The position numbers and the translations under genes are program-made. Under the pieces are notes generated by a model. It made no database searches. It had not been told where the DNA came from and was given only the letters and a program-made list of their open reading frames with translations. DNA of 64,000 nt from NCBI GenBank assembly GCA_016234725.1, contig JACRAK010000012.1, forward strand, positions 10,619 to 74,618, given 5' to 3'. Numbering within the stretch: the stretch's first letter is position 1; every line of letters begins with the position of its first letter. Origin of the DNA: Candidatus Azambacteria bacterium (GTDB lineage: Bacteria; Patescibacteriota; Minisyncoccia; GWC2-36-17; WO2-46-25). Positions 6,689 to 49,916 of the stretch are shown piece by piece.

Positions 6689-6690
6689 CA

Positions 6691-14639: not shown

Positions 14640-15302
14640 CTACTGATTCGCAAAATTTCTCTCTGCTTCAGATAATGAGATCCCAAAGATTTCTTTGAAT
14701 TTTTCTTCAAACTGAGGATGGTAGTAGTTTTTATTCAAGGATCGTAATAATCCCAATATTTTTTCAAAGGAATATTTTTCTATCAAAAAGGAGGTAAACA
14801 AGCATGCATGTTTATATGCATCATGGTTAGCATATACGCTCCATCCATACTCAGTGGAGAGCTTCGCGACATAATTCTCTTCTATATAATATCCCCGCTG
14901 ATTTTTATATTGATCGACTTGGCCCGCTACATACATCGCTATCCCTTCATTCAGCCATACGGGAATGGCCGCCGCGCCCACGATCTTCTTTGCGAACGCA
15001 TGCCACAGCTCATGCTTTAAGATTTTTATAAAATCACTTTTTGGGTGAGAGCTTTGCTTTTCAAAAGAGTTCGGATGAAGAATGTCTATAGAACCATCCG
15101 CAGATGTGTTTCCCACATGCCATGGTGGTGTTTTCATCCCGATCCGCTTCTCATAGTTAGCTCTGGATTCGTGGAGTCGGATAACGATAGGGAAGTCGGC
15201 GGGTATGTGCAGCTGACCCCCGAGATCAGCAAGCGCCTTTTCAACTTCTTTCTTTATTACATTAAGACCCCTCTTCGGTCCTTGCAGCGTGAAATTACTC
15301 AT
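14640..15302 (-). CDS. HExxH-motif putative zinc metallopeptidase (paralog family 1 of 4)
   Basis: 220 aa; HELWH … NEGIAMY (HExxH+E); same architecture as 22081, 25568, 28265. Confidence 0.4.
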   Translation of the reverse strand: MSNFTLQGPKRGLNVIKKEVEKALADLGGQLHIPADFPIVIRLHESRANYEKRIGMKTPPWHVGNTSADGSIDILHPNSFEKQSSHPKSDFIKILKHELWHAFAKKIVGAAAIPVWLNEGIAMYVAGQVDQYKNQRGYYIEENYVAKLSTEYGWSVYANHDAYKHACLFTSFLIEKYSFEKILGLLRSLNKNYYHPQFEEKFKEIFGISLSEAERNFANQ

Positions 15303-21708: not shown

Positions 21709-21816
21709 TTTAACCTCCTATTTTAAATGAGCAACTAAATTCCTTATTTTTTTGAAGATATCACCTGTGTGTTTTTTTGTAAATACTCGTCAAGCATTAC
21801 ACGCGCCCAAAAAACA

Positions 21817-21848
21817 CCATATCTAGAAAAAAGACGGCATTTGATTGC
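21817..21848. terminator. Bidirectional terminator hairpin, near-copy of 14603-14632
   Basis: aaaaaagacggca-tttgat-tgccgcctttttt. Confidence 0.5.
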
Positions 21849-21871
21849 CGCCTTTTTTGCCGATGATTCTC

Positions 21872-21950
21872 TATTTCGCTGCCGTCAGTCACTTTTTGTA
21901 GCGGGGGAGTGCGCCGGAAACTATCTGCGCATATGTTTCTCGGAGGTGTT
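21872..21950. repeat. Conserved about 75-bp noncoding element, copy A
   Basis: about 88% identical to 24551-24624 (…cactttttgtagcgggggagt…ccggaaactatctg…atatgtttctcg.aggtgt.tggtc). Confidence 0.55.
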
Positions 21951-22080
21951 TGGTCATCGGACCTTCTTTTTGCTTGTTAAATACAACGCCGTCGATTTTC
22001 CCGATGCCGTTCACTTCCACCGCAGTGCCGCAAAAAACGCTTCATCGAATTTTTTATAGTAAGAAAAATAAAAACCCCGG

Positions 22081-22821
22081 CTAATGAGCCGGGGTTTTTA
22101 TTAATTCAATTACCTTATCAAGAAAGAGGGTAAAATTTTGCTTTGTTTTCTTATGCTTCTTGTATAATTGCAAGACTTTTTGTCTTATTTCTTTGTGACC
22201 ATAATAGCCGCGGTCAGGAAGATAAAGAAATTCGGAAAGATCCTCGTTTAGCAAAACTGTTAAAATTTCTTTTAGGTCCCCGACCTGTTTCTCGCCCAAT
22301 CCTTTTTCATTACAATAACCGCTATATCTTTTTAAAAATTCTATATGCATGATCTCGTGCGATGCTGTATTGGGGAAATCGCTAAATTGATTAAACATGA
22401 AGCTGTTCTTTCCAAAAGGAATTCTTTTCCCGAAGGTAAAATAAGCGCGATATTCTTTTTCAAATTCTTTAAGAGGAATATCTAGCATTTTTGAAAGACC
22501 TAAAAGGCATTCCTTGCCTGCTTCACCCCATCTTTTTTCTGCTCTTGCTGATATGTCTTTTATAATATGCGTTGCTTTGGGTGTTTTTAAGAATTTATCA
22601 AGAACCTTTTCTATTTTAGGAAGAATTTTTTCTTCGGAATCTGTTTTTTCAGCGAGTAATTCAATTTCCTGAGGAATGCCGCCCAAATCCCATTTTTTAT
22701 GCCCGCCGGCATCATACGATATATTTTTGACACATGAATCAACCCAATTTTTTAATTCCCAATCCTTATTAAATTCAAGTGTGATTTTAGGGAATAAGTT
22801 CTTTTTTGAGGCATTTTTCAT
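22081..22821 (-). CDS. HExxH-motif putative metallopeptidase (paralog, module A)
   Basis: Start set at MKNASKK; TASHEIMHIEF … ILTVLLNEDL, homologous to 28265 protein (TAMHEIMHIFF … MTVLLNLWF). Confidence 0.45.
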   Translation of the reverse strand: MKNASKKNLFPKITLEFNKDWELKNWVDSCVKNISYDAGGHKKWDLGGIPQEIELLAEKTDSEEKILPKIEKVLDKFLKTPKATHIIKDISARAEKRWGEAGKECLLGLSKMLDIPLKEFEKEYRAYFTFGKRIPFGKNSFMFNQFSDFPNTASHEIMHIEFLKRYSGYCNEKGLGEKQVGDLKEILTVLLNEDLSEFLYLPDRGYYGHKEIRQKVLQLYKKHKKTKQNFTLFLDKVIELIKTPAH

Positions 22822-22854
22822 GCGTTTAAAATACCATAAAAAGAGAAAATGCGC

Positions 22855-22890
22855 TAGCCTATTTAGGCTAGCGCATTTTGAGGCCGGAGA
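22855..22890 (-). terminator. Intrinsic terminator after peptide A (gcgctagccta-aat-aggctagcgc + U-rich)
   Basis: Perfect 10-bp stem immediately after peptide stop. Confidence 0.55.
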
Positions 22891-22894
22891 AGCG

Positions 22895-23026
22895 TTAATA
22901 ATCAGTGCAGCAGTCTCCGTCAGGACAGTCGCAGTCACTACACTGACTCGTGCAATCGAGCAAGGTCTTGCTGGCGACTTCTGATTCAGCAAGAACCAAA
23001 ACTCGATTTTTATCTGTTGTTCCCAT
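22895..23026 (-). CDS. Cys-rich RiPP precursor candidate A (43 aa, six Cys; SCIFF/ranthipeptide-like)
   Basis: Manual ORF MGTTDKNRVLVLAESEVASKTLLDCTSQCSDCDCPDGDCCTDY*; perfect SD aaggaggtgatc; ATG directly abuts the rSAM stop. Confidence 0.6.
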   Translation of the reverse strand: MGTTDKNRVLVLAESEVASKTLLDCTSQCSDCDCPDGDCCTDY

Positions 23027-24115
23027 TTAGATCACCTCCTTTGTTTTGACATGCCCCCAAATTAACTGTAAGGCTTTAAGTTCAATTAATCGTGGAATCA
23101 TGATCTTAAAGAGTTTGCAGTATGGGGAAGAAGTGGTGGCTAGGTCATGAGCTCCAAAATTGATGACGGGACATCCGCCCCCACAAACAAGAGACCACTG
23201 GCAATCTTGACAGCCCTTGTAATCAAGCACATCTTTTGAATGTAGTTCGGGAAAAGTGTCTTGAGACCACGCCATTTCCAAAAAGGTTTTCTTGGTTTCA
23301 AGATTGCCTATCGGCTTTTTATCCATCCTTGCCTGGCAAACAAATACATTGCCGTTATGATCAACGGCTACGCCGGAATGGCCAAGATTGCACCCTCGTA
23401 AATGAGGCTTCCTATCGAGATGAATCTCGCACAGCTGTTGCGCGGCAACGGCGCTATGATTACGAATTGCAAGAGCGTAATAATCATAGCAATCATTAAG
23501 GGCGCTCGAAGCTTTTTTCATAAAGTCTTCGTATCCCTTAAAATCTCCTACATTATCCCGATATAGACCATAACGAAACGGAATGCTTGCATCAATCAAA
23601 AAACGGCTCAGCATAGGCACGCCGGAAATATTTCTATCCGTTATGGTTGTTAGTATCGTCGGGCGGACATCATTCCCCATGCATAAGTTCAGATTTTTGG
23701 CCACGACATCAAAAGAACCGGTGCCAGCGCCGAAGAAGCGTGTTTTGTTGTGCCACTCACCTAAACCATCTAACGACATACAGACCCTCACCGAGTTATC
23801 TTTAATCATCTTTATTAGATTAAGATCGAGCAGAGTCCCGTTTGTCAGTAAGATTAATTTAGCGCGAATACCTTTTTCTACGAATCGTTTCTGAGTCTGT
23901 TCGATCAAAAAATTAATCAACGTTTTATGCAGCGTGGGCTCTCCTCCAGCAAGACGTATTGTTACTAGGTCCAGACCGTGATGGCTTACAGTTTGTTCAA
24001 GCTTATCCAGATATAAGCTTGCTGTCTGAAAAGACATGAACTTTTTGTCCTTATTTATATAACAGTAAGGACATTTTAAATTACAGCAGTTGGCTATATG
24101 GAGCCATGTGCTCAT
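23027..24115 (-). CDS. Radical SAM/SPASM-domain peptide maturase A
   Basis: CNLKCPYC (CxxxCxxC) and C-terminal SPASM CQDCQWSLVCGGGC; start at MSTWLH (upstream TTG extension possible). Confidence 0.7.
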   Translation of the reverse strand: MSTWLHIANCCNLKCPYCYINKDKKFMSFQTASLYLDKLEQTVSHHGLDLVTIRLAGGEPTLHKTLINFLIEQTQKRFVEKGIRAKLILLTNGTLLDLNLIKMIKDNSVRVCMSLDGLGEWHNKTRFFGAGTGSFDVVAKNLNLCMGNDVRPTILTTITDRNISGVPMLSRFLIDASIPFRYGLYRDNVGDFKGYEDFMKKASSALNDCYDYYALAIRNHSAVAAQQLCEIHLDRKPHLRGCNLGHSGVAVDHNGNVFVCQARMDKKPIGNLETKKTFLEMAWSQDTFPELHSKDVLDYKGCQDCQWSLVCGGGCPVINFGAHDLATTSSPYCKLFKIMIPRLIELKALQLIWGHVKTKEVI

Positions 24116-24185
24116 GCCCTTAACATTGTTTTTTTCTAGACTAGGTCTAAACAGCGGAGCATCTTTTGGTTGAATAAGTCCGTTT

Positions 24186-24491
24186 TCAAGCAGAAGTTTT
24201 ATCCGTGGCAAATCTTTCTCGGTCTGAAAAAGGGACAGATTGTCTATAAAGAAGCTTAGTTCTCATGTCGAGCAGGACCACGCCTCTTTTGCTTCCAGGG
24301 ACAAGCGCATAACCATAGCCGTCTACTTCTCCTGTGTAACAATTACCCGTCTTTTTATATGCCTCTATTTCCCTCATTTTCTTTCCTCCGTAGGTTTTAT
24401 GATGTTGTAAAAGATCTTTTCGTATTTGTCTTTCTAATAACATAACAATAGCGTTTTTGTCAAATTCTTCATAAGAAGGGTTACTAATCAA
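24186..24491 (-). CDS. Hypothetical 101-aa protein upstream of rSAM A (non-ATG start)
   Basis: ORF with TTG start and no SD; possibly an accessory/RRE-like protein or not expressed. Confidence 0.2.
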   Translation of the reverse strand: MISNPSYEEFDKNAIVMLLERQIRKDLLQHHKTYGGKKMREIEAYKKTGNCYTGEVDGYGYALVPGSKRGVVLLDMRTKLLYRQSVPFSDRERFATDKTSA

Positions 24492-24502
24492 TAAAAATGA
24501 AA

Positions 24503-24529
24503 AACTCCCTTTCTAAGGAGTTTTTCTTG
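24503..24529. terminator. Bidirectional terminator hairpin (aaaaactccc-tttctaa-gggagttttt)
   Basis: Perfect stem with flanking A/T runs; followed by repeat copy B. Confidence 0.5.
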
Positions 24530-24550
24530 GTTCGCGTTTTTACTGTACAA

Positions 24551-24624
24551 CCGTCAACCACTTTTTGTAGCGGGGGAGTTTGCCGGAAACTATCTGGGTA
24601 TATGTTTCTCGCAGGTGTCTGGTC
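24551..24624. repeat. Conserved about 75-bp noncoding element, copy B
   Basis: see 21872-21950. Confidence 0.55.
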
Positions 24625-24686
24625 GTGGATCGGTAAGCATTGTAAATAAAAGACCTTTTGTGTAGGATACAAGCGAAAGGAAAACC

Positions 24687-25400
24687 ATGATCCCACGACT
24701 TGTCCAGCAAATCACCTATTGGCCGATATACCTCTTTTTTAAAGTGTTTTTTTGTTTTCGCGTGGAAGGACAGGAGAATCTGAAAGGACTGGAAGACAAG
24801 CCGGTTATTTTTGCGTCAAACCATGCAAGCTTTCTCGATGGTCCCATGTGTGCAGTGGCGATGCCGCGGGAAGGAATCGTACCAAAAAAGTTTTTTGCCA
24901 TGCGGTTTCTTGTCGCAAAAGAAGCGTTCGCGTTGGTAAAAAACGTCGTTCCGTTTCCCATATCTATAATCTTTGCGATCTATGTGCGTATGAATGGGGG
25001 CGTTCCCGTGGTGAGAGGCATGAACAATATTCAAAAAAATCTTGAGGAAGCAGTGAGGATACTTAGCAAGGGAACAAAAATGTGGATTTTCCCGGAAGGG
25101 AAACTGTCAAAAGACGGAACGCTTCAAAAAGGGAAGCGGGGCGTTGCCTATTTGCATCAAGCAACTAGCGCGGCTATTGTGCCGGTAGGGCTTATCGGCA
25201 CGTGTCGCATGCCTTCACAATTTTTTCGTTTCCAGCGTCCGTGCGTGACGGTGCGCATTGGCTTGCCAATGCATATTCCCGAAGGCGTTTCCTTGGAAGA
25301 GGGGACGGACATGATAATGAAGGAAATAGGACTGCTTCTTAGTGGCATGGCCACTTCATTGACCACGGCACGCGTAGAAAAAGCGCCATCAGCGATTTAA
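24687..25400 (+). CDS. plsC: 1-acyl-sn-glycerol-3-phosphate acyltransferase (PlsC family)
   Basis: NHASFLDG (HX4D) and FPEG motifs; putative promoter TTGTAA-17-TAGGAT at 24638-24666. Confidence 0.7.
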   Translation: MIPRLVQQITYWPIYLFFKVFFCFRVEGQENLKGLEDKPVIFASNHASFLDGPMCAVAMPREGIVPKKFFAMRFLVAKEAFALVKNVVPFPISIIFAIYVRMNGGVPVVRGMNNIQKNLEEAVRILSKGTKMWIFPEGKLSKDGTLQKGKRGVAYLHQATSAAIVPVGLIGTCRMPSQFFRFQRPCVTVRIGLPMHIPEGVSLEEGTDMIMKEIGLLLSGMATSLTTARVEKAPSAI

Positions 25401-25419
25401 ATTAGAAAATAAAAAGGCG

Positions 25420-25455
25420 GCGTAGGCGATAATTGAATCGCCGCCTTTTTATTTT
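25420..25455. terminator. Bidirectional terminator (aaaaaggcggcg…cgccgccttttt)
   Basis: GC stem with A/T flanks after plsC. Confidence 0.55.
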
Positions 25456-25465
25456 AGAATAACTC

Positions 25466-25561
25466 CACCCTCTTTTGTTTTTTGCCGACAGGATCAGAAA
25501 AACCGGGCGTGGCGGAAGTTATGGCGGAAAGCTTTGAAAAATAAAGGTTTTTTGGTATCAT
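25466..25561 (+). promoter_or_regulatory. Conserved regulatory element copy 1 (GGCGGAA-N5-GGCGGAA direct repeat + TTGAAA-N17-TATCAT promoter)
   Basis: Shares the core (a)tc(t/a)gaaaaaccgggcgtggcggaagttatggcggaaa(a/g)ctttgaaaaataaa with copies 2 and 3. Confidence 0.6.
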
Positions 25562-25567
25562 GAAAAC

Positions 25568-26587
25568 ATGAAGCTACGATTTATAACATCAAAAATAGAG
25601 AATCAATTCTTCTTTATCGCGAATCTTTCTGAATGGCATTTTTCATGTCGATTAGATTATAACCAGGCGTGGATCGAGGAAACAGGAGCATTGAGCAATG
25701 AAGAGAAAAGGAAGCTCAAAGTCTTCGCAAGTATCTTGCAGAAACATGGATTTACTTACGATAAGAATGGAAAAACAAAATACATCGGTAAATATTTTTA
25801 TTGTTATTCGGAGGAAAAAGCATGGGAAGAATTGGGAAAAAATATTACCAAAAAAGAGGCCCTAAGAATAAAAAATGTTTTTAAGATTTTTGAACCACGA
25901 TTTGAAAAAACATGGAACCCGCAAGAGCTCGCGGCAAGAGTAAAAACAATACAAAGTTTTACAAAAGAAAAAAGATGGAAGGAGCTCGTGCAGCGCGTAA
26001 ATATATTATTTGGGGGGCCTGCCATAACAAAAAAGATTTTTATTGTTGTCTTGATTTCTCCTCTGGCAGGAGAAGGAGTGACGGCTGCCGGTAGCGCAAA
26101 TAACGGAGATCAATGCATAACATACGAGATTCCCAAATTAAAAAATGGAGGGTGGGAGCGTGATTATTCTATGGGAGTTTTAGCTCACGAGATCGCTCAC
26201 GCGTTGTTTTCTAAAAAAGGCGGCGAAAAAGAGATTGCAAAGATTATTAAAAAAGAAAATATTCCTGCGCATATAAAAGGATTCCCCACGAGCGCTGTTT
26301 CTGTGATTAACGAGGCCATTACAGAGAGCTTTATTCCCCTCGGCTACCTTGGTCAAAAATATGCTGGGAGAGACCTCGCTCCGTTATTGTTAGATAATAG
26401 CGATAAAGGATGGCTCACAGAAGAAAAGACAAAGAAAGAGAGAGGAATTAATTACCGCAATATAAGAAAATATCTTATCTGGCAATTGTATCCTCTTGCT
26501 GTTATATATGGACGACAAAGTAAATCCATCGATGCATATTTTATCAGGCAGGCAGTATTATTACTGAAAAATGCGCTCGGCAAATAA
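25568..26587 (+). CDS. HExxH-motif putative metallopeptidase (paralog, module B)
   Basis: 339 aa; GVLAHEIAHALF … VINEAITESF. Confidence 0.4.
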   Translation: MKLRFITSKIENQFFFIANLSEWHFSCRLDYNQAWIEETGALSNEEKRKLKVFASILQKHGFTYDKNGKTKYIGKYFYCYSEEKAWEELGKNITKKEALRIKNVFKIFEPRFEKTWNPQELAARVKTIQSFTKEKRWKELVQRVNILFGGPAITKKIFIVVLISPLAGEGVTAAGSANNGDQCITYEIPKLKNGGWERDYSMGVLAHEIAHALFSKKGGEKEIAKIIKKENIPAHIKGFPTSAVSVINEAITESFIPLGYLGQKYAGRDLAPLLLDNSDKGWLTEEKTKKERGINYRNIRKYLIWQLYPLAVIYGRQSKSIDAYFIRQAVLLLKNALGK

Positions 26588-26601
26588 AAAAAAGGCAACC
26601 G

Positions 26602-27681
26602 TTAGGGTGCCTGTGGTATTGCCGATGCTTTTTGGAGAAAAAGCTTGATGTAGTCGAACATCCTTTTTCTTGTCTCGCAAAAAGGGTAGTCTCCGCCATA
26701 GTTTCCTGTCGCCCAGTAGGAGTCGGCTCTGCATCCGCCACGACAAATTGCTACATATTCGCAACGGCCGCATTTTTCAGCATTGTGATTGCTTCTTATT
26801 TCAGCGAGCGCCTTAGTTTTTGATCCCGCTAAAGCATTGATCAGTGATTGGCTGAGGATGTTACCAAGCATAAACCTCTCTTCCACCAATGAACCACAGG
26901 GAACGATGTTTCCTTCTTGATCAATGGTGATCATTTTCTTTAAGCAAGAGTTAGCAAAGGAGCACCCTCTCGGTCTCTGGCCAAGAAGCGAGCGCATCAT
27001 TGTGTCGAGCGGCTCGATTGAGGGAAAAGAGTTTTCCGTATGCGCCCAAAGATCGAATACGTCCTTATAGAAAGCAAACATTTCATCGTTTGAGGGCATT
27101 ATCGGTCTTTCTGAAAGTGGCACGCTTTTTAGAGGCAGCAAGCCAAATGAGTTCACGCCGAGAGCTTCATAGAAATGAAATATCTCTTTGGCGCGAGAAA
27201 CATTTAGTTTACTTATAACAGAAAGAACACCAAGAGGCATGCCAGTCGCTTTTATTTCTGCGCAAGTTCTTAATAGCGCACTTATATCAGAGCGGCGATG
27301 AGCTATGTATACATCTGTTGGCGCATCAAGACTAATCCCCACATGGAAATCATTCTTTTGAAGAAAATCAATCCACGAGGCATCCAGCAAGAGGCCGTTT
27401 GTTTGGATGTTGTTGTGATATACAATGCCTCTTTTTTCCGTTTCCTCCTTCTGGGCATTTATTACTTCTTGATAAAAATTTTTACCAACAAGAAGCGGTT
27501 CGCCGCCATGCCAGCAGAACTCGACACTGTCAAAGCCGATGGAGGCATTATGAATCATAACCCTGATGTTTTTTATCTCGAACTTTTTTATGTTTCTTCG
27601 AGAGGCGCGTGAGTAACAATACACGCACTGAATGTTGCAGTCAGATCCCGTGATCATGATGATCGTCATGGCTTTCTTCAT
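26602..27681 (-). CDS. Radical SAM/SPASM-domain peptide maturase B
   Basis: CNIQCVYC and SPASM CGRCEYVAICRGGC. Confidence 0.7.
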   Translation of the reverse strand: MKKAMTIIMITGSDCNIQCVYCYSRASRRNIKKFEIKNIRVMIHNASIGFDSVEFCWHGGEPLLVGKNFYQEVINAQKEETEKRGIVYHNNIQTNGLLLDASWIDFLQKNDFHVGISLDAPTDVYIAHRRSDISALLRTCAEIKATGMPLGVLSVISKLNVSRAKEIFHFYEALGVNSFGLLPLKSVPLSERPIMPSNDEMFAFYKDVFDLWAHTENSFPSIEPLDTMMRSLLGQRPRGCSFANSCLKKMITIDQEGNIVPCGSLVEERFMLGNILSQSLINALAGSKTKALAEIRSNHNAEKCGRCEYVAICRGGCRADSYWATGNYGGDYPFCETRKRMFDYIKLFLQKASAIPQAP

Positions 27682-27756
27682 AAAATTCGCTCCCGTGTTT
27701 TTTTGAATGCGGATGTGGAGGGAGGGGGTATTTACTACCCCCTCCTGTTCGAGCTA

Positions 27757-27939
27757 TTACTTGGTGCTGGCGTCGCGATAATGATCGTGCGACGGTTGAT
27801 CGACCCAGTGATCGTGTTTCATGCTCAGCGAGTCACCGTTTTTAATCTTGGCAGTCGCTTGAGTAATGATCTTTTGCACGGGTCCGGATATGCAGACGCC
27901 TGACATATCCTTAACATGACTATCGATTCCGCGTTCCAT
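27757..27939 (-). CDS. 60-aa candidate precursor peptide B (His/aromatic-rich C-terminus)
   Basis: SD aaggagggtaaat-ATG; MERGIDSHVKDMSGVCISGPVQKIITQATAKIKNGDSLSMKHDHWVDQPSHDHYRDASTK; hairpin GGAGGGGG…CCCCCTCC between it and rSAM B. Confidence 0.45.
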   Translation of the reverse strand: MERGIDSHVKDMSGVCISGPVQKIITQATAKIKNGDSLSMKHDHWVDQPSHDHYRDASTK

Positions 27940-28100
27940 ATTTACCCTCCTTTCTTTGAGTTTTCAGCCCATTAGATGGCTGAAATTGGGGTTTCCATTA
28001 ACGAAATTATTAAAGGACATAACAAGCGCATATATACGCTTTTCCCTTTATGATGTCAACGCCCTGTGTATGCCGCGCCCTGTATGACACTGTATGGCAA

Positions 28101-28238
28101 GTTTAAGAAACTACGCAACCACTCAAAACATATTTTATCACCCAACAACCCCATTGTTTTTAAAGATAATCTGAAAAACCGGGCGTGGCGGAAGTTATGG
28201 CGGAAAACTTTGAAAAATAAAATTGTTTTTGATATGAT
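28101..28238. promoter_or_regulatory. Conserved regulatory element copy 2 between divergent promoters (rSAM-B operon on - ; HExxH c on +)
   Basis: about 125 bp about 90% identical to copy 3; -35 TTGAAA 28210-28215, -10 TATGAT 28233-28238; minus-strand TTGACA-17-TATATA at about 28020-28050. Confidence 0.6.
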
Positions 28239-28264
28239 GGAGAGGGAAATTAAACAAAGAAACA

Positions 28265-28978
28265 ATGAGCACCCCGCGTGTTATATTTTCTTACAATCAG
28301 GAAAAAGATATCAAAAACATTCAAATTGGACTTGATACTGTGAGTCGCGGCAGACAACCAGATAGAGAGCTTGTACAAATTATCCAGCAATACGGCAGCG
28401 CGCCATCAGAAGAAGACATCAAGGAATATTTAATTTCTCGATGGAAGAATAAAAGGGGTGTCCCTGACCTTATCGTAAAACAACTCCAAGAATATTGGGA
28501 CACAATAGAAGAAAAATATTTTAATCATCTTGCAGATCGAATGCAGCTCACGTCCTTTCATGGAATTAAACAGCTAGGCGGTTTTTTAAGTGTGCGTTAC
28601 GGAAGCGGTTATAATACTGAACAACAATGGTTTGCGGTAAGTGTGTATAATAGCACCCTAAAGAACACATTAACGGCAATGCATGAGATCATGCATATTT
28701 TTTTTCATAAACAATGGTGGGATTTTTGCAAAAAACAAGGATTGCCCGATAACAATATATGGGATGTAAAAGAATCAATGACGGTGCTTTTAAATTTGTG
28801 GTTTAAAAATCAGGTTATTGATACTGATTGGGGATATGATGAGCACGCCGAGCTTCGCCGTTTCATTATAGATTGGTTTTTGGAAACGAGAGATTTTAAA
28901 AAAACATTGGAAAGGGCGTGTATATATATGAAAGAACACTCAGAAAAAAGCCCTGATTGGATAACCAATCAGGGCTAG
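28265..28978 (+). CDS. HExxH-motif putative metallopeptidase (paralog, module C)
   Basis: 237 aa; TAMHEIMHIFFHK … ESMTVLLNLWF. Confidence 0.45.
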   Translation: MSTPRVIFSYNQEKDIKNIQIGLDTVSRGRQPDRELVQIIQQYGSAPSEEDIKEYLISRWKNKRGVPDLIVKQLQEYWDTIEEKYFNHLADRMQLTSFHGIKQLGGFLSVRYGSGYNTEQQWFAVSVYNSTLKNTLTAMHEIMHIFFHKQWWDFCKKQGLPDNNIWDVKESMTVLLNLWFKNQVIDTDWGYDEHAELRRFIIDWFLETRDFKKTLERACIYMKEHSEKSPDWITNQG

Positions 28979-29002
28979 TTTGCTGATGTAAAACACCAGC
29001 TT

Positions 29003-29155
29003 TTAGGAGCCATCGCAGCCGTCTGTGCCGCCGTGACATCCTGACTGGCATACGTTGCAGCCGCTGTTGTCACAGGTGCCACCGCTGTTGTCGCATGCGG
29101 CTAGTACGGTAGTAGCCGACGATCCTTCAATGAGCGAAGAAAAAGCGAGCTTCAT
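29003..29155 (-). CDS. Cys-rich RiPP precursor candidate C (50 aa, seven Cys)
   Basis: Manual ORF MKLAFSSLIEGSSATTVLAACDNSGGTCDNSGCNVCQSGCHGGTDGCDGS*; perfect SD aaggaggtgattg; downstream of rSAM C on same strand. Confidence 0.6.
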   Translation of the reverse strand: MKLAFSSLIEGSSATTVLAACDNSGGTCDNSGCNVCQSGCHGGTDGCDGS

Positions 29156-29226
29156 AACAATCACCTCCTTATTGGGAGTTTCTGTGTTTTGCTGACTCCT
29201 TCCCAGTGAGTAGCAAGTGGGGGTGT

Positions 29227-30534
29227 TTACACCACCAGCTCCAAAACATTTCTGCTGATAAGCTCGCTAAGAAAATGCAGATATTTTGCATTTTCCATAG
29301 AGATTTTATACATAGCGCGAAGAGATTTTGGAGTGAACGACAGTTTTTTGATGTGAATGTCTTCTATGAGATTCAGTGTCTCGTGCTCCACGAAGGTGTT
29401 TTTAATGCCACTCGTGTTGATTATCCCTAATGGTTCATCTCGGCGAAAGCGACAAGCTCTTCTTACGCGGAGCACCGTGTTGTTCTTAAGAAGCGCATGT
29501 GTTTTTGGAACCGCGCGTTTTTGAGCCATTTGTGCTCTCATGATCGAGTCTTCACCGTGAACATCGCCATTAAGGGAGGCGACTCGGCAGCCACCACCAC
29601 ACATAGCGACAAGCTTACAGGAAAGACAGGCCCGAGGAAGAAGAGATCCGTCACGCCACTGAACCATTTTTAACCAAATGGATTTCAAATCTTCAGTGGA
29701 AAGAGATCCATAAGCGATTTCGTGGTGGGGGCATGCGCGCACCGATCCATCTGAAGCAATGGCGATGGACGTTTTACCAGCAGAACAGGTTCGCTGACCA
29801 AGGAGGGAATAAGCATCGTCGTTGTCGAAAAAACAGATGGGGTAGGGAACGAGAGAGTCTAATTGCATGCCAGTGGTTTTCAGATCAAGTAGCTGGTCAA
29901 CAATTAAACCGACGCTTTTTATTGGAAGAGCGAGTTCCTTTGAAGACTGTTTGTTTGGTAAGCGCGGAGATGTAACGCGTGTCGCAGAAAATGCTACCAC
30001 CCCAAGCTTATGTGCAAACTCGCCAGTTTTTTTCACATCTAGCAGGTTTTGCTCCATTACAACCATATTTACAGCGGTGCGGATGCCGGCGGCATGAGCA
30101 CACTCAATACCCCGCACGATACGCTGAAAAGATCCTTTTGTGCCGGAAAGAGAATCGTGGGTATTGGAATCATACGATAAGAGCGATGTTAATATTGTTC
30201 GGAGTCCCACCGAAAAAAGCTCCTTTGCAATTTTTTCAGTAAGTAGAACAAGGTTTGAATTTAGGCTGAACGAGATTTTCCTCTTCGAAAGTTCCTTAAT
30301 GAGAAAAATAAGTTCGCCCTTATTTAGAAGTGGTTCTCCTCCTGTAAGTATGACGTGGAAAATCTTGTGGGCAGCAAGTTGCTCAGCAATTCGAATCGAC
30401 AACGCCTCCGAAATGCTTTTATTTGGAACTAATCCATCGTCTCGCCAAAAATTGTAGCAGTGGAAACATTTTTGGTTGCAGCCAGTATTGATTTCAACAT
30501 GAGCAGCTAGTGGAGCATCAAGCGTTTTATACAT
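29227..30534 (-). CDS. Radical SAM/SPASM-domain peptide maturase C with C-terminal PqqD-like (RRE-like) extension
   Basis: CNQKCFHC; SPASM CLSCKLVAMCGGGC; C-terminal about 110 aa …KKLSFTPKSLRAMYKISMENAKYLHFLSELISRNVLEL resembling PqqD/RRE; SD aaaaggaggctgtt. Confidence 0.7.
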   Translation of the reverse strand: MYKTLDAPLAAHVEINTGCNQKCFHCYNFWRDDGLVPNKSISEALSIRIAEQLAAHKIFHVILTGGEPLLNKGELIFLIKELSKRKISFSLNSNLVLLTEKIAKELFSVGLRTILTSLLSYDSNTHDSLSGTKGSFQRIVRGIECAHAAGIRTAVNMVVMEQNLLDVKKTGEFAHKLGVVAFSATRVTSPRLPNKQSSKELALPIKSVGLIVDQLLDLKTTGMQLDSLVPYPICFFDNDDAYSLLGQRTCSAGKTSIAIASDGSVRACPHHEIAYGSLSTEDLKSIWLKMVQWRDGSLLPRACLSCKLVAMCGGGCRVASLNGDVHGEDSIMRAQMAQKRAVPKTHALLKNNTVLRVRRACRFRRDEPLGIINTSGIKNTFVEHETLNLIEDIHIKKLSFTPKSLRAMYKISMENAKYLHFLSELISRNVLELVV

Positions 30535-30646
30535 AACAGCCTCCTTTTGTTTTTAAAGCTCTTCCTCGACATATCAATAATGCACGAGGTTTATTAATAA
30601 AAACATTAATACATTTATATTAATTTGTCAATACATTATGGAGCGG

Positions 30647-30786
30647 TTTCAAGAAACTAACGCAACCCCTCAAAACATATTTTATCACTCACCAGCCCCC
30701 TTTGTTTTTTAAAGATAATCTGAAAAACCGGGCGTGGCGGAAGTTATGGCGGAAAACTTTGAAAAATAAAGGTTTTTTGGTATGAT
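30647..30786. promoter_or_regulatory. Conserved regulatory element copy 3 between divergent promoters (rSAM-C operon on - ; MTase/HK on +)
   Basis: Same 125-bp element; -35 TTGAAA 30759-30764, -10 TATGAT 30781-30786; minus-strand TTGACA-17-TAATGT about 30600-30630. Confidence 0.6.
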
Positions 30787-30822
30787 AACCTTGTTCTCAC
30801 TATTTATACTAAAAAGAAATAT

Positions 30823-31695
30823 ATGCACGATCTCGAAAATATTAAAATTATTATTGATAGCGATCGTAAGCTTTATGAAATTCATAGTTTCATAAGGAAA
30901 ACAATCGATATTTTTTTAGTCCCAATCTTAAATAGATTGCCACGTGGTTTATTTAGGAAATCAAGCAAAAAAGCAGAAACAGTGAATAAGCATGCAACAA
31001 CCCATAGAGCATTAGAAGTGATTTATTCGTTTAACAACCAGGTAAATTTCGAAAAAGGCATCTTCGACGGGTTTTTTACTTATTTTTGGCAGAAAACCAG
31101 TCATGCTAAGGCTTTAAGAAATCGGCTTAAATTAGTAAAGAGAGAGCTCTTAAAAGCAATACATTCTCTAAATAAAAAGGAAATAAAAATACTGAATCTT
31201 GCGTGTGGTTCAAATAGAGCGGTTATAGAGGTTGTGGGAATGCACAAAAACGATTTCGATTTTAAGGTATTTGGGATGGATAAAAATGAAAGCGCGATCG
31301 AAGATGCGAAAGCATTAACAACCGCTTTTGATGTTGACCATCTGTTTAGCTGGCATCAAAATACGGTTTCCGGTTTTTTAAAAGAGGCGGAGCAAGCCCA
31401 GTTTGATATAGTAGAGATGGTTGGATTTTTGGATTATGTGCCGGACGAGAAAGCCGTTTTTTTGTTTGATCAAATTTATTCAGTTCTGGCTGACGGCGGC
31501 TTCTTCATCACAGGGAATATAAAAGATAATAAGGAAAGAAGATTTGTTACCGAGGTGGTTGGTTGGCCGCATCTTATTTTTCGTAGCGAGAATGACCTTG
31601 CGAGAATATTGAAGCAATCCAAATTTAAAGACGCAGCTACCCATATCGTATACGAACCGCACAATATCCACGGAGTGGTAGTGTGTAAAAAATAA
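30823..31695 (+). CDS. Putative class I SAM-dependent methyltransferase
   Basis: ILNLACGSNRAV (motif I-like) and LADGGFFITG (post I/II). Confidence 0.4.
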   Translation: MHDLENIKIIIDSDRKLYEIHSFIRKTIDIFLVPILNRLPRGLFRKSSKKAETVNKHATTHRALEVIYSFNNQVNFEKGIFDGFFTYFWQKTSHAKALRNRLKLVKRELLKAIHSLNKKEIKILNLACGSNRAVIEVVGMHKNDFDFKVFGMDKNESAIEDAKALTTAFDVDHLFSWHQNTVSGFLKEAEQAQFDIVEMVGFLDYVPDEKAVFLFDQIYSVLADGGFFITGNIKDNKERRFVTEVVGWPHLIFRSENDLARILKQSKFKDAATHIVYEPHNIHGVVVCKK

Positions 31696-31704
31696 ATCCG
31701 TTTT

Positions 31705-33882
31705 GTGTTCTATTTTATAGCAACGTCTTTAGTAAATGCTTTTATTGCCGGCTTGCTCGGATTCCTTGTCATTTCAAAAAATTGGAGGGATCTCGCGAAC
31801 AAGTTATTTTTTGGACTTAGCATTTCTGTTGTCTTCTGGGCATTAAATTATTGGCAATGGCTTTCTTCTCAAAACGCAAATTCCGCGCTGGTTTTTTCAC
31901 GGCTATTTTCGGTAGGAGCTCTTTTTATTCCCATTTTTTATTTTCATTGGGTTCTTATTTTCAGCGGAACAAACAAACAATACAAGACATTTCTTAAAGT
32001 TTTATATTTCATCGCTTTTGTTTTTCTTTCCCTTTCCTTCTCAAAACTATTTATCGAAGGAGTGGGGCAAAAACTTTTTTTCCCTTTTTGGCCAACCCCC
32101 GGAATTCTTTACAATATCTATTTAATTGTTATCTATTTTGGACTCACGATCTATTCTTTGTTTATTCTCTGGAGGAGTTATATTCGTAGTAATGACAGCC
32201 ATCAGAAAGCAATCATTAAATATATCATATTGGGATCCTTCATTGGGTTTAGCGGGGGAGCAACAAACTTTTTCTTATGGTACGATATCCCGATTTTGCC
32301 GTATGGAAATATTCTTGTTAGTTTCTATCCCTTAGCTCTTGCTCTCGCCAGCTTCCGGCACGGCCTTTTCAACATCAAGGTCATCGCCACAGAATTGCTG
32401 ACGCTCACTGTCTGGATCGCGGTATTGGTTGAATTGATATTAGCTGAAACATGGGAAAAGCGGCTTTTGGAAGCGGGGTTGTTGGCGTTCGTGGTGGTGT
32501 CCGGTATTTTTATTATCCGCAGCGTGTTGAAGGAGGTTGAGCAGAAGGACAAGTTTAAAGATTTATCAGAACGACTGGAAAGCGCGAATGCGCAGCTTAA
32601 ACAAAAAACGCTGTATCTGACGACATTACAGGGGTTTACGCATGACATCGGCAGGACGCTTGATTTTAAGGAGATCACTCAAAAGATCGTTGACGGCATT
32701 TCGGAAAAATTTGGGTATCTTGCCGGCCTGCTTCTCTTGGTGTCCGAAGACGGCAAGATGATCTTTCCCGTTACTATCACGGAGAACACGATCACGAAGA
32801 TCGCGCTTAAGATATTGCCAAAACAGATGCATGAATATGCCGGCGATTTTGAGCATGACGATACGCTATCGATCCGGGCGGTCAAGGACAACGCGATACA
32901 GCAAAGCAATGCCATAGCCGATTTTCTCAGCCCGCCGATCTCCGAAACGCTGTGCGTGACGATCCAGAAGGCAACCGGGCTGAAATCCGGCGTAGCGATA
33001 CCGATACGCTCTGAAGGGAAGGCGATCGGCGTACTCGATATTTTTCTTGATCGGCCGAAAGAAGAGATAGGAGGCGACGAGCTCGAGGTGATGAAAACGC
33101 TTGCAAACCAGATCGGCATCGTACTCAAAAATGCATCGCTGTTCGAACAAGTGAAGGAAGCAAACGAAAAGCTGAAAGAATTGGACGATCTGAAAACGGA
33201 CTTTATTTCCATCGCGTCGCATCAGTTGCGTACGCCGCTCACGGCGATCAAGGGGTATACCTCTATGATCATGGAAGGGTCATACGGCGAGGTGTCTGAT
33301 AAAGTGAGAGTAACAATAGGAAAGGTGTTTCAATCCGCCCAGCGCCTTATTTATATCGTGAATGACTTGCTTGATATTTCCCGTATCGAGCAGGGGCGGT
33401 TTACCATTGCGCTTGAGCCGATAAAGGTGGCGAATGTGCTGAAAGATGTGGTGGAGGAGCTCCAGCAGAATGCAAAAAGCAAGAACCTTTCACTTGAGCT
33501 TGCGGTAGCACCGGAAAATATGGAGGTAACGGCGAGCGCCGACTTTAACAAGATACGGCAGGTGTTTTTGAATGTGATCGACAATGCGATCAAATATACC
33601 AACGAAGGATATGTGCGCGTGGGAGTTGAGAAGAGAGCGAATGATGTGCTTATGTCCGTAAAGGATTCCGGCATCGGTATTTCAGAGGCAAGCATGAAGA
33701 ATCTGTTCCAGAAATTCAGCCGGGCAAAAGGCGTGACAAAGCTCCATACCGACGGCTCCGGCCTCGGGCTCTTTATCGTCAAGAAGATCATGGAAGCCCA
33801 TGGCGGCACCGTGTGGGCGGAATCGGAAGGCGAAGGCAAGGGCTCGCAGTTTTATGTTTCCATCCCTTTGCAAAAGGAGTAG
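31705..33882 (+). CDS. Sensor histidine kinase with N-terminal 7TM domain, GAF-like region, HisKA and HATPase_c
   Basis: 7 hydrophobic helices; H-box SHQLRTPLTAIKGY; N/G1/G2 boxes; AT-rich 5' half vs GC-rich 3' half. Confidence 0.75.
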   Translation: MFYFIATSLVNAFIAGLLGFLVISKNWRDLANKLFFGLSISVVFWALNYWQWLSSQNANSALVFSRLFSVGALFIPIFYFHWVLIFSGTNKQYKTFLKVLYFIAFVFLSLSFSKLFIEGVGQKLFFPFWPTPGILYNIYLIVIYFGLTIYSLFILWRSYIRSNDSHQKAIIKYIILGSFIGFSGGATNFFLWYDIPILPYGNILVSFYPLALALASFRHGLFNIKVIATELLTLTVWIAVLVELILAETWEKRLLEAGLLAFVVVSGIFIIRSVLKEVEQKDKFKDLSERLESANAQLKQKTLYLTTLQGFTHDIGRTLDFKEITQKIVDGISEKFGYLAGLLLLVSEDGKMIFPVTITENTITKIALKILPKQMHEYAGDFEHDDTLSIRAVKDNAIQQSNAIADFLSPPISETLCVTIQKATGLKSGVAIPIRSEGKAIGVLDIFLDRPKEEIGGDELEVMKTLANQIGIVLKNASLFEQVKEANEKLKELDDLKTDFISIASHQLRTPLTAIKGYTSMIMEGSYGEVSDKVRVTIGKVFQSAQRLIYIVNDLLDISRIEQGRFTIALEPIKVANVLKDVVEELQQNAKSKNLSLELAVAPENMEVTASADFNKIRQVFLNVIDNAIKYTNEGYVRVGVEKRANDVLMSVKDSGIGISEASMKNLFQKFSRAKGVTKLHTDGSGLGLFIVKKIMEAHGGTVWAESEGEGKGSQFYVSIPLQKE

Positions 33883-41622: not shown

Positions 41623-44134
41623 CGGAAACGCGCTCGTGCACCGCGCGTTTCACGCATTGCCGCCGCTCTCCCACGAAGGAGAGCCGACGAATGCCGTGTA
41701 TGGATTTACGAGCGTTTTGCTTAAGGTACTCCGCGAGCTGAAGCCCGATTACGTCATTGCGACGTTCGACTTGGCCGCGCCGACATTCCGCCATGAGGAA
41801 TTCGCCGAATACAAGGCGCACCGACCCAAGACCGCTGATGACCTCGTGGTGCAATTCCCGAAAGTGAAAGATATGGTGCGCGCATTTGATATTCCTATTT
41901 TTGAAAAAGAAGGTTTTGAAGCGGACGATCTTATCGGCACGATCGCTTTGCTTGCAAAACAGCACACGCCGCGGGTGAAAACCATTATTATCACCGGCGA
42001 TCTTGACACGCTCCAGCTCGTTGATGACGACACCGAGGTGTATACGCTCAAAAAAGGAATTTCAGATACGGTGGTGTATGATGAAAAAGCTGTGCGGGAG
42101 CGGTTTGGCATCGCGCCGTCGCAGATGAATGATTTCAAAGGGCTCAAAGGAGACCCGTCGGACAATATTCCCGGCGTGCCGGGCGTGGGGGAAAAGACCG
42201 CAACGCAACTATTGCAAGAGTACGGCTCGCTTGAAAATATATATGAAAACATCGGCGTGATGCCCGAAAAGGTGCGGGCAAAAATAGAGCCGTTCAAAGA
42301 CCAGGCGTTCTTTTCCAAAAGTTTGGCGACCATCAAGCGCGATGTGCCGATAGAGCTCGATATGGAAAAAGCGAAGTTCGGCGGGTATGACCAAGCAGGA
42401 ATAGAAGAAACGCTGAGAAAATACGGATTTGCAAGCTTGATCCCGCGGCTGGCGCTGCATCGAGCGCACCACGAAGAGATGGCGGTGAGCGGGCAAGCGC
42501 CGACGACAGTAGGGAGCGGGGACATCGGCAAGCTGGGCAAAGAAAAAATGATCGCATGCGCATGGGACGGCGCGCACGCGCAGGTAGCGACACAGGGCGG
42601 CGCGATATATCAGTGCGCGTTCGCAGACATAAAAAGCGTGCTTGAAGACGAGCGCGTGAAAAAGATCTGCTACGACAGCAAGCAGTTTATCAAAGCGTGC
42701 CGGAAAAAAGGCGTCGCGCCGCGCGGCATCGAGTTTGATATCATGCTCGCGGCGTATCTGTTGGCGCCGGGGGAGCGGGGGTATCCGCTTGAGCATATCG
42801 CCCATAAAGAAGATGTCGCCGCGCGGCCGCCGCTTTCTTTTTTTGCGCTGCGGGAGAAGCTGGACGACACATTGCGCGCAGAAGGGCTTGTGAAAGTGAT
42901 GTATGAAATAGAAATGCCGCTTGTGCCGGTGCTTGCCGAGATGGAGCGGGTGGGCGTGAAAATAGATGTGCGGGCGCTTGAGACGCTTTCTTTGCATCTT
43001 GAACAGGAAAAAAACGAGGCGACACAGCGCATTTTTGCGCACGCAGGGGAGGAGTTCAACCCTGATTCGCCCGCCCAGCTTTCAAAGATATTATTTGAAA
43101 AACTGAACATTGCGCTTCCGGCGCGCGCAAAGCGCGTGAAGTCGGGCCTTTACAGCACCAAGGCGGATGAGCTTGAAAAGATACGGGACGCGCACCCGCT
43201 TGTGGGCGAGATCATTCGGTATCGCGAAGTGGCGAAACTGAAAAGCACCTACGCGGACGCGTTGCGCGAAGCGGTGCATCCCGACACGGGACGAATACAC
43301 ACCATTTTTAACCAGACCGGCACGGCAACAGGGCGGCTGTCTTCATCGGACCCGAATATGCAGAACATTCCCCAGCGCGGGGAGTTTGCCGACGCCGTAC
43401 GTTCCGCGTTCGTTGCCGATGAGGGCTTCAGCTTTGTCGCGCTGGATTTTTCACAGATCGAATTGCGCATCATCGCGTCGCTTTCGGGCGATGAGAAAAT
43501 GATCCACATCTTTGAATCGGGCGGGGATATTCACCGAGCGACCGCCGCGGAGGTGAATCACGTGCCGCTTGAAGCTGTGACGAAAGAAATGCGCAACAGC
43601 GCAAAAGCGCTCAATTTCGGGATACTGTACGGGATGGGCCAGCGCGCATTTGCACAGACCGCGGGCATTGATATCAAGACCGCAAAACAATTCATCGAAG
43701 AATATTTCAAGAATTTTACCGGCGTTGCCGCATTTATAGAAAAAACAAAGGAACACGCAAAGAAATACGGTTTTGCGCAGACGCTTACGGGGCGGAAGCG
43801 GTGGCTGCCCGAGATACGCTCGCAAAACCCGATGATCCGCAACGGCGCCGAGCGCATGGCGCAGAACATGCCGACACAGGGCCTGCAGGCCGACATCATC
43901 AAGCTCGCGATGATACGCATTGCGCGTGAGGTGCTTGCGCCGCGGCACACTGACGATGTGCGCTTGCTGCTGCAGATACACGACGAATTAATTTTTGAGG
44001 TGAAGGATGATATAATCAAGGAGGTCGTGCCGATACTCCGGCACATCATGGAGTCCGTGTTTCCTTTGCGCGTGCCTATCCGTGTCGATGTGCACGCGGG
44101 CAAGCGGTGGGGGGCTCTTCACCCGTTTCTCTAA
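41591..44134 (+). CDS. polA: DNA polymerase I (5'-3' exonuclease + family A polymerase, Taq-like length)
   Basis: N-terminal LILIDGNALVHRAFHAL; motifs A/B/C (…DYSQIELR…, RRSAKAINFGIIYG-like, …HDE…). Confidence 0.9.
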   Translation: MNKQERLILIDGNALVHRAFHALPPLSHEGEPTNAVYGFTSVLLKVLRELKPDYVIATFDLAAPTFRHEEFAEYKAHRPKTADDLVVQFPKVKDMVRAFDIPIFEKEGFEADDLIGTIALLAKQHTPRVKTIIITGDLDTLQLVDDDTEVYTLKKGISDTVVYDEKAVRERFGIAPSQMNDFKGLKGDPSDNIPGVPGVGEKTATQLLQEYGSLENIYENIGVMPEKVRAKIEPFKDQAFFSKSLATIKRDVPIELDMEKAKFGGYDQAGIEETLRKYGFASLIPRLALHRAHHEEMAVSGQAPTTVGSGDIGKLGKEKMIACAWDGAHAQVATQGGAIYQCAFADIKSVLEDERVKKICYDSKQFIKACRKKGVAPRGIEFDIMLAAYLLAPGERGYPLEHIAHKEDVAARPPLSFFALREKLDDTLRAEGLVKVMYEIEMPLVPVLAEMERVGVKIDVRALETLSLHLEQEKNEATQRIFAHAGEEFNPDSPAQLSKILFEKLNIALPARAKRVKSGLYSTKADELEKIRDAHPLVGEIIRYREVAKLKSTYADALREAVHPDTGRIHTIFNQTGTATGRLSSSDPNMQNIPQRGEFADAVRSAFVADEGFSFVALDFSQIELRIIASLSGDEKMIHIFESGGDIHRATAAEVNHVPLEAVTKEMRNSAKALNFGILYGMGQRAFAQTAGIDIKTAKQFIEEYFKNFTGVAAFIEKTKEHAKKYGFAQTLTGRKRWLPEIRSQNPMIRNGAERMAQNMPTQGLQADIIKLAMIRIAREVLAPRHTDDVRLLLQIHDELIFEVKDDIIKEVVPILRHIMESVFPLRVPIRVDVHAGKRWGALHPFL

Positions 44135-44135
44135 C

Positions 44136-49427: not shown

Positions 49428-49476
49428 TGCCGTTGCGTATTACTGATAACTACCGGTTGTTCCGGTGGTGTATTTG

Positions 49477-49850: not shown

Positions 49851-49916
49851 CAACATCCCCGAAACTATAAAACATAAAACATGGAACTTGAAACATAAAA
49901 CTAAAAGATTCAAGTT

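Follow-up and report, generated by a model that had tools for sequence, protein, structure and literature searches.

A strain-variable array of three putative RiPP cassettes with radical SAM/SPASM enzymes and zincin-like HExxH proteins in Candidatus Azambacteria

Systems that come close to the locus described here are known among the peptides that are made on ribosomes and modified post-translationally (RiPPs). In ranthipeptides of the PapA/PapB (freyrasin) type, the radical S-adenosylmethionine (SAM) enzyme PapB joins Cys to the β-carbon of Asp within Cys-X3-Asp motifs (PMC9413430). The maturases of triceptides, dynobactin and darobactin (DynA, DarE, XyeB, GrrM, YhhB) are also of interest, and in the triceptide maturases of the ChlBH type that have been characterised to date an HExxH domain is part of the enzyme as a fusion. 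Characterised HExxH proteins that are fused or adjacent to cyclophane-forming radical SAM enzymes hydroxylate Asp and His on the pre-cyclised peptide (PMC12636437). In graspetide loci of the candidate phyla radiation (CPR), zincin peptidases, SPASM enzymes and UbiE-like methyltransferases have been noted (Makarova et al. 2022, PMC8939145). The subject of the present analysis is a stretch of 64,000 nucleotides (the window) from a 96-kb contig of a Candidatus Azambacteria (Patescibacteria/CPR) metagenome-assembled genome. In its low-G+C part three units each bring together a small peptide gene, a radical SAM/SPASM enzyme gene and a gene for an HExxH protein. We read them, with a probability of about 0.65, as three RiPP cassettes (A, B and C) of about 2.4-2.6 kb each, which are independent of one another and form an array that varies between strains. 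Each would consist of a precursor, a maturase of the radical SAM/SPASM type and an HExxH…E protein that is cytoplasmic and has a zincin fold.

The G+C content is 33-48% across ~14-39 kb of the window, compared with 50-56% in the flanks, in agreement with the AT-rich island that had been seen in an earlier reading of the letters alone (the sequence-only reading). In the source genome HY839_01900 is identical to HExxH1 and HY839_01920 to HExxH2; both are annotated as hypothetical. The loci used for comparison, designated by L-numbers, are Patescibacteria or unbinned metagenome contigs. L014 comes from a relative at ~85% nucleotide identity and L029 from a relative at 87%, L001 is a cassette B contig of the same organism, and some of the related contigs were obtained from Hainich H41 groundwater samples. 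A contig identical to cassette B is present in SRR12113407. A literature search found no description of these cassettes.

Precursor peptides and radical SAM enzymes

All three enzymes (rSAM1, rSAM2 and rSAM3) match PF04055 and PF13186 above the Pfam gathering scores, which confirms the three minus-strand radical SAM/SPASM genes recognised in the sequence-only reading. The enzymes are only 22-23% identical in pairwise comparison, and the cassettes, although alike in architecture, are therefore not recent duplicates of one another. Of the earlier description as paralogous modules the common architecture therefore stands, and the paralogy of the enzymes was overstated.

Beside each enzyme gene lies a short open reading frame (ORF) preceded by a Shine-Dalgarno sequence. 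These ORFs, too, had been noticed before, with the proviso that they should not be absent from relatives, and orthologues were indeed found in L014, L017, L002 and L003. pepA starts directly after the rSAM1 stop codon. It is preceded at a distance of 8 nt by AGGAGG and followed by a terminator hairpin of 15 bp, perfectly paired (22879-22846). Its core, CTSQCSDCDCPDGDCCTDY, contains three overlapping Cys-X3-Asp motifs at residues 29, 32 and 34. It has orthologues in L014 and L017; in the comparison with L014, 8 of the codon changes are synonymous and 6 non-synonymous, the differences are distributed 4/0/12 over the codon positions, and the core CSDCDCPDGDCCTDY is unchanged. pepC begins with the ATG at 29155, behind another AGGAGG, and has a terminator at 28976-28949. 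Its core is CDNSGGTCDNSGCNVCQSGCHGGTDGCDGS; seven Cys had been counted in the peptide originally and the correct number is six. Compared with the L014 orthologue, 9 codons of pepC have changed synonymously and 6 non-synonymously. The pepC leader (29093-29155) ends in L-A-A-C, which resembles the lipobox of lipoproteins. A signal peptide seems unlikely, since the segment before this motif is polar and contains Glu.

pepB is preceded by a strong Shine-Dalgarno sequence (GGAGGG), and its core, HDHWVDQPSHDHYRDASTK, consists of two H-[DE]-[HY]-aromatic-x-Asp units. In L002 and L003 the pepB orthologues adjoin orthologues of rSAM2 (51-59% identity) and of HExxH2. The leaders of pepB and these orthologues have the motif S-x-P-V-x-[KR]-I-I in common and the core is conserved as H-[DEQ]-[HY]-[WY]-x-[DE]-x-P-x-H-[DE]-[HY]-Y-x-D. 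It contains the aromatic-X-X units that define a triceptide core: W-V-D and Y-R-D in pepB, W-T-D and Y-N-D in L002, and Y-I-E and Y-V-D in L003. Written more strictly as H-[DE]-[HY]-[WY]-x-D-x-P-x-H-[DE]-[HY]-Y-x-D, this core is one that we take to be unlike the cores of darobactin and dynobactin. pepA, pepB and pepC are genuine conserved genes, and the substitution pattern indicates that they are coding.

The rSAM1 gene is split in the window. It extends to an ATG at 24377, behind GGAGGAAAG, and a 1-nt insertion at ~24236-24254 (an extra A relative to L014) divides it into the ORFs 24186-24377 and 23027-24211. The orthologues are continuous, with lengths of 449 and 428 aa, and possess ~90 extra N-terminal residues that match ORF 24186-24377. 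This may reflect either a genuine frameshift or a mistake in the assembly. The N-terminal domain of rSAM1 may resemble a RiPP recognition element (RRE), and the same can be suggested for the C-terminal ~95 aa of rSAM3; the Pfam PqqD/RRE models gave no match to either extension.

None of the three enzymes reaches an NCBIfam equivalog cut-off. The best match of rSAM1 is PapB (NF047865) with 142.2 bits, well short of the cut-off of 340, so rSAM1 is not a PapB equivalog. Nevertheless, cassette A resembles the PapA/PapB ranthipeptide systems in two respects: the Cys-X3-Asp motifs of pepA are the motif in which PapB forms its cross-link, and the maturase is followed directly by the precursor, a gene order typical of RiPP clusters. 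It differs from them in that the PapB model, with 330 positions, leaves the N-terminal extension of the rSAM1 orthologues uncovered, and also in its partner, a novel zincin-like protein, and in its host, a Patescibacterium. By analogy, a PapB-like rSAM1 would introduce Cys-to-Asp thioether links into the pepA core.

rSAM2 matched anSME best (TIGR03942, 207.7 bits, cut-off 349), followed by DynA (NF041298, 202.8 bits, cut-off 450). It scored 115.9 bits with DarE (NF038005, cut-off 650) and 111-135 bits with the cyclophane formers (GrrM, XyeB, YhhB, FxsB, AmcB), the highest being GrrM/OscB with 135 against 310. These scores and the two conserved aromatic-x-Asp units of pepB recall the triceptide, dynobactin and darobactin maturases, and the pairing with an HExxH protein recalls the fused domain of the ChlBH type. 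On the other hand rSAM2 stays below all of these cut-offs and the NCBIfam matches of its HExxH partner include no α-ketoglutarate (αKG)-HExxH model. An enzyme of this anSME/DynA/cyclophane-like kind might cross-link the two aromatic-x-Asp units of pepB.

The best NCBIfam matches of rSAM3 are GeoRSP, NirJ2 and AhbD at ~100 bits; this enzyme may cross-link the six-Cys core of pepC. The sequence-only reading had looked to the SCIFF/six-Cys maturase model TIGR03974, with which rSAM1 and rSAM2 scored only 86 and 68 bits (cut-off 425) and which was absent from the top matches of rSAM3. PADLOC gave only a generic viperin-like similarity for radical SAM enzymes. As a whole, the searches with hidden Markov models (HMMs) proposed at that stage support enzymes of a peptide-modifying type, with no cut-off of a housekeeping equivalog being reached. 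The features of the region are listed in Table 1.

Table 1. Features of the cassette region (positions in the window)
Feature	Position	Strand	Evidence
D2a, ilvE-like 3' fragment, downstream junction repeat of cassette A	21872..22053	-	tblastn to L009
HExxH1, 246 aa, zincin-like, cassette A	22081..22821	-	Homologous to HExxH3; no Pfam match
pepA precursor, 43 aa, 6 Cys	22895..23026	-	Shine-Dalgarno, terminator, L014/L017 orthologues, third-position-biased substitutions
rSAM1, putative N-terminal RRE-like domain + radical SAM/SPASM, split	23027..24377	-	Pfam; orthologues
D2b, shorter ilvE-like 3' fragment, upstream junction repeat of cassette A	24540..24626	-	89% identical to D2a
D1 copy 1, upstream of HExxH2	25481..25561	+	Repeat and promoter-like site
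HExxH2, 339 aa, zincin-fold (predicted), cassette B	25568..26587	+	Invariant H207, E208, H211, E249; motif INEAITES
rSAM2, 359 aa, radical SAM/SPASM without RRE, anSME/DynA-like clade	26602..27681	-	Pfam, NCBIfam
pepB precursor, 60 aa	27757..27939	-	Shine-Dalgarno; L002/L003 orthologues; called as gene in L001
D1 copy 2, ~120 nt, between divergent pepB-rSAM2 operon and HExxH3	28113..28238	+	Repeat
HExxH3, 237 aa, zincin-fold (predicted), cassette C	28265..28978	+	Invariant H140, E141, H144, E170, N177
pepC precursor, 50 aa, 6 Cys	29003..29155	-	Shine-Dalgarno, terminator, L014 orthologue
rSAM3, 435 aa, radical SAM/SPASM + C-terminal extension of ~95 aa	29227..30534	-	Pfam, NCBIfam
D1 copy 3, methyltransferase-kinase promoter region, likely original copy	30660..30786	+	Promoter half kept in L029
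Class I SAM methyltransferase, 290 aa	30823..31695	+	Pfam; paired with kinase in L007, L029, L030, L032
Sensor histidine kinase, 725 aa, HisKA_7TM-GAF-HisKA-HATPase_c	31705..33882	+	Pfam

The HExxH proteins

HExxH1, HExxH2 and HExxH3 gave no significant match in Pfam or NCBIfam (NCBIfam E ≤ 0.01), curated peptidase profiles included. HExxH1 and HExxH3 are 35% identical over 86 aa (BLASTP E 7e-14), and a profile built from 45 members of the HExxH1/3 superfamily aligned with the HExxH2 family in hhalign with a probability of 92% (E 7e-7). The three proteins can thus be regarded as one family at the superfamily level, and the single HExxH...E family of the sequence-only reading holds in this distant sense. 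At E ≤ 0.001 a profile search yielded at least 638 representative clusters, of which the best 150 are mostly 200-250 aa long, shorter fragments aside. HExxH1, which carries HEIMH … KEILTVLLNE and has 67 homologues, has a terminator at 22102-22067. The residues H140, E141, H144 and E170 are invariant across the 45 diverse members of the HExxH1/3 superfamily, as are H207, E208, H211 and E249 in the HExxH2 family. The second Glu lies 25 residues downstream of HExxH in HExxH1/3 and 37 residues downstream in HExxH2, where it is part of the sequence INEAITES.

The HExxH proteins are predicted to have the fold of a gluzincin catalytic domain. As in gluzincin (clan MA) peptidases, HExxH and a downstream Glu are invariant throughout the family, and a β-sheet precedes the active-site helix as in the catalytic domains of M1 peptidases and thermolysin. 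In contrast to gluzincin peptidases, these are small cytoplasmic proteins of a single domain (210-340 aa) that match no peptidase model significantly, and their Glu spacing exceeds the 18-20 residues of M1 and thermolysin. The only HMM matches of peptidase type were weak: the YydH/LiaK epipeptide protease (E 0.0012), which is a RiPP protease, M6 and SprT. A sequence search of the PDB with the HExxH profiles returned nothing significant beyond one zinc-metallohydrolase lipoprotein (E 0.0097). A match of HExxH3 to Cas4 in PADLOC (E 7e-4) is weak and was taken as chance. We read the HExxH proteins as most likely leader peptidases, a role that we favour at somewhat better than even odds. Each would then remove the leader as a substrate-specific metallopeptidase.

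The association with radical SAM enzymes is not confined to the window. Genes of the HExxH1 type adjoin radical SAM/SPASM genes in L014-L016, L017-L019 and L033, those of the HExxH2 type in L002, L003/L004, L005 and L010, and those of the HExxH3 type in L007, L010 and L014; a precursor gene was looked for in L005 and none was identified. In most of the related loci examined, members of the superfamily adjoin radical SAM-peptide pairs, and the partners are mixed, with HExxH subtypes pairing with different radical SAM subtypes across loci. L033 is instructive, since downstream of a single rSAM3 homologue (36% identity, also with a C-terminal extension) there are two precursors rich in Cys and Asp and then two HExxH paralogues. 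The precursors are arranged in tandem (4857-4991 and 5010-5171) and have the leader motif [FL]-x-P-K-[IV]-L-S-I-V-E-K in common. The pairing of two peptides with two HExxH genes suggests one HExxH protein per peptide.

A Peptidase_MA_2 protein with an HExxH motif is encoded at the edge of the low-G+C island (14640-15302, minus strand), and a similar protein adjoins a radical SAM gene in L017 (11921-12574). A comparison can also be made with the graspetide loci of the CPR, which are found in the same phylum-level hosts and in which zincin peptidases, SPASM enzymes and UbiE-like methyltransferases co-occur. The likeness is one of protein types, and there is no ATP-grasp gene here.

Junction repeats and cassette exchange

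Cassette A is flanked by the direct repeats D2a and D2b, which the sequence-only reading did not mention. In a tblastn search D2a matched the C-terminus of an Aminotran_4 (class IV, IlvE-like) gene that is intact in L009 (3044-3940); D2b encodes TRHLRETYTQIVSGKLPRYKKW…. The alignment of D2a with the corresponding sequence of L014 has 16 codon changes within the N-terminal 27 codons, and by our count 11 of these are synonymous. In L014 a full ilvE (~5440-6368) is followed by cassette A and by a second ilvE 3' fragment (8860-8958). In L029 a different radical SAM cassette is located between two ilvE 3' fragments (3284-3442 and 6993-7061). It comprises a SPASM-domain ORF, a 496-aa radical SAM enzyme with a CxxCxxCC domain and a GNAT acetyltransferase (3695-6933), and no precursor was identified in it. 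The occurrence of ilvE-like 3' fragments around different radical SAM cassettes in three related contigs suggests an insertion hotspot. D2 lies upstream of terminator-like hairpins and was also considered as a riboswitch, small RNA or leader. This was rejected because Rfam gave nothing, no covarying stem was visible in the four copies, and the sequence encodes an IlvE-like C-terminus with mostly synonymous changes.

The homology between the window and L014 covers 22097-24477 for cassette A and 28221-30631 for cassette C. Taken with the junction repeats, these stretches bear the mark of cassettes that were inserted or exchanged at defined junctions. The array would have been built in this manner: cassette A lies between two ilvE-like 3' ends, and for cassettes B and C the flanking sequences are promoter copies of the neighbouring operon for a methyltransferase and a seven-transmembrane (7TM) kinase. 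L014 contains runs of N at ~6200-6300 (in ilvE) and within 3021-3686 (in the rSAM3 orthologue), which fit assembly breaks at the repeats.

In the second repeat, D1, an exact core of 28 nt recurs at three places and is found at no other position of the window (0 expected). A conserved element of ~125 bp had been described upstream of the genes starting at 25568, 28265 and 30823. Three copies do exist, but only 73 nt are common to all of them, ~120 nt being common to copies 2 and 3. D1 has the layout TGGCGGAA-N4-TGGCGGAA, a gap of 4 nt, and TTGAAA-N16/17-TG-TATGAT, in which the direct repeat has a period of 12 bp; the promoter of copy 1 reads TTGAAA-N16-TATCAT. The D1 copies, which are predicted promoters, hold the three best sigma-70-like sites of the region. 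A 52-nt core is identical in copies 2 and 3 and agrees at 50 of 52 positions in copy 1, whereas divergence is 14% in the adjacent 49 nt of flank that copies 2 and 3 have in common, which speaks for either constraint or gene conversion.

The relatives offer an explanation for the origin of D1. In L029 cassettes B and C are absent, an acyltransferase gene is followed directly by the methyltransferase-kinase pair, and of D1 the promoter half alone is kept in front of the methyltransferase. In L014 cassette C is found in a different neighbourhood without the repeats. Neither in L029, upstream of the methyltransferase, nor in L014, upstream of HExxH3, are the TGGCGGAA direct repeats present. These arrangements point to D1 as the methyltransferase promoter, duplicated at cassette junctions, and we prefer this to the shared regulatory element of the sequence-only reading. 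Since cassettes B and C lie between the copies, HExxH2, HExxH3 and the methyltransferase-kinase operon all stand behind near-identical promoters. D1 was absent from every fetched locus except L001, which ends at D1, again in keeping with an assembly break at the repeat. The genome-wide search for D1 suggested at the outset was run on contigs of species-representative genomes, a set in which the source genome is evidently not included; it gave 9 single matches in unrelated GC-rich genomes and none in Patescibacteria.

The methyltransferase-kinase pair and the competing readings

The methyltransferase and 7TM histidine kinase genes recognised earlier at 30823-33882 were confirmed by Pfam. The pair is conserved in L007, L029, L030 and L032 at 36-87% identity. 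The kinase is linked to radical SAM cassettes in the window, L007 and L029; in L030 and L032 the pair stands without a radical SAM gene within 8 kb. In L007 it is located immediately downstream of a peptide-radical SAM-transglutaminase run on the same strand, with an HExxH3 homologue on the opposite strand. Among the ORFs scanned with Pfam at 11-48 kb there was no response regulator that could serve as the partner expected in a dedicated two-component system. A functional link of the pair to the peptides is possible. L007 has repeated intergenic elements of its own, 4612-4657/6837-6882 and 6756-6823/7993-8060 (91% and 96% identical), which are unrelated to D1 and lie around the HExxH3 homologue and upstream of the methyltransferase. 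Outside the island the window encodes a second sensor kinase (PAS-HisKA-HATPase, 44082-46268, plus strand), with no adjacent response regulator among the scanned ORFs, and a transfer-messenger RNA (49474-49860, minus strand; Rfam 129 bits) whose tag peptide according to ARAGORN, ANLFSKVKNAIALSFAPLSFARV, looks unusual.

Some observations weigh against the interpretation as three RiPP cassettes. No exporter or integrase was found in the low-G+C island, and genes of the HExxH3 family occur without a nearby radical SAM gene in L006, L012 and L013. The frameshift in rSAM1 means that cassette A may be inactive, unless the assembly is wrong. Because all radical SAM scores are far below the curated cut-offs, the proposed types of cross-link are analogies. 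It might even be thought that the enzymes are housekeeping maturases, acting on anaerobic sulfatases or in heme and cofactor synthesis, and that the small ORFs are spurious, given that anSME is the best match of rSAM2 and that NirJ2 and AhbD are among those of rSAM3. We consider this very improbable, since these scores fall short like all the others, no sulfatase or heme gene was present among the neighbours scanned with Pfam, and the peptide genes, which are conserved and syntenic, evolve under purifying selection.

A more serious challenge concerns the HExxH proteins, which might be αKG/Fe(II) oxygenases like ChlH, PflC/PosC and BpmH (IPR026337). They would then hydroxylate Asp and His, or cleave the backbone oxidatively, after cross-linking by the radical SAM enzyme. 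The characterised HExxH proteins that act with cyclophane-forming radical SAM enzymes (PMC12636437) provide a precedent: they have in common with ours the motif, a zincin-like fold, the pairing with a RiPP maturase and Asp/His-rich substrates. The Asp-rich nature of all three cores (pepB is His/Asp-rich) is what makes this rival serious, and the His-His-Glu triad suits a 2-His-1-carboxylate iron site as well as a zinc site. However, none of 65 family members listed an αKG-HExxH model at E ≤ 1 in NCBIfam, with the presence of TIGR04267/IPR026337 in that library unconfirmed. The weak matches of the HExxH families are to peptidases, HExxH2 has a thermolysin-like NEAxxE motif, and the structural similarity to the oxygenases appears lower than that to M1 peptidases. 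Many Patescibacteria are thought to be anaerobic fermenters, yet related contigs come from the Hainich groundwater. On balance we regard oxygenase activity as rather unlikely, and leader proteolysis is retained in the interpretation of the cassettes.

The sequence-only reading saw in the region one co-regulated multi-product system with its own kinase. In such a system the 7TM kinase would sense the mature peptide or peptides and an unlinked response regulator would bind the TGGCGGAA repeats, leading to auto-induction via the D1 promoters. The existence of three near-identical promoters with a direct repeat abutting the -35 box is consistent with this, as is the stronger conservation of the D1 core relative to its flank. 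In addition, L007 combines peptide, radical SAM enzyme, transglutaminase, methyltransferase and 7TM kinase on one strand with a repeated element of its own. Against it stand the occurrence of the pair without a radical SAM gene, the absence of the direct repeats in relatives and the lack of a response regulator nearby. Moreover, D1 faces the HExxH genes and the methyltransferase-kinase operon and not obviously the peptide-radical SAM operons. A single co-regulated system therefore appears doubtful, and we continue to regard the three cassettes as independent.

A bolder extension of the cassette interpretation can be imagined, although we hold it to be improbable. Patescibacteria might possess a hypervariable, integron-like hotspot that swaps peptide-radical SAM-zincin cassettes of ~2.4 kb at the ilvE 3' end and the methyltransferase promoter repeats. 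The zincin superfamily of at least 638 clusters would represent dedicated peptide-specific processing enzymes, and the products would be sensed by the methyltransferase/7TM-kinase. If true, swappable cassettes would let an ultra-small symbiont exchange its peptide arsenal, or its signalling repertoire, rapidly.

The analysis defines three new precursor families and a sizeable uncharacterised, previously unnamed zincin superfamily that is repeatedly tied to radical SAM-peptide pairs. The junction repeats and the differences in cassette content from strain to strain provide a concrete case of RiPP diversity being shuffled in uncultured bacteria. Patescibacterial genomes measure about 1 Mb, and little secondary metabolism is generally attributed to them. 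Three RiPP cassettes within 9 kb are a large investment for a genome of this size, which suggests that modified peptides matter for the episymbiotic lifestyle.

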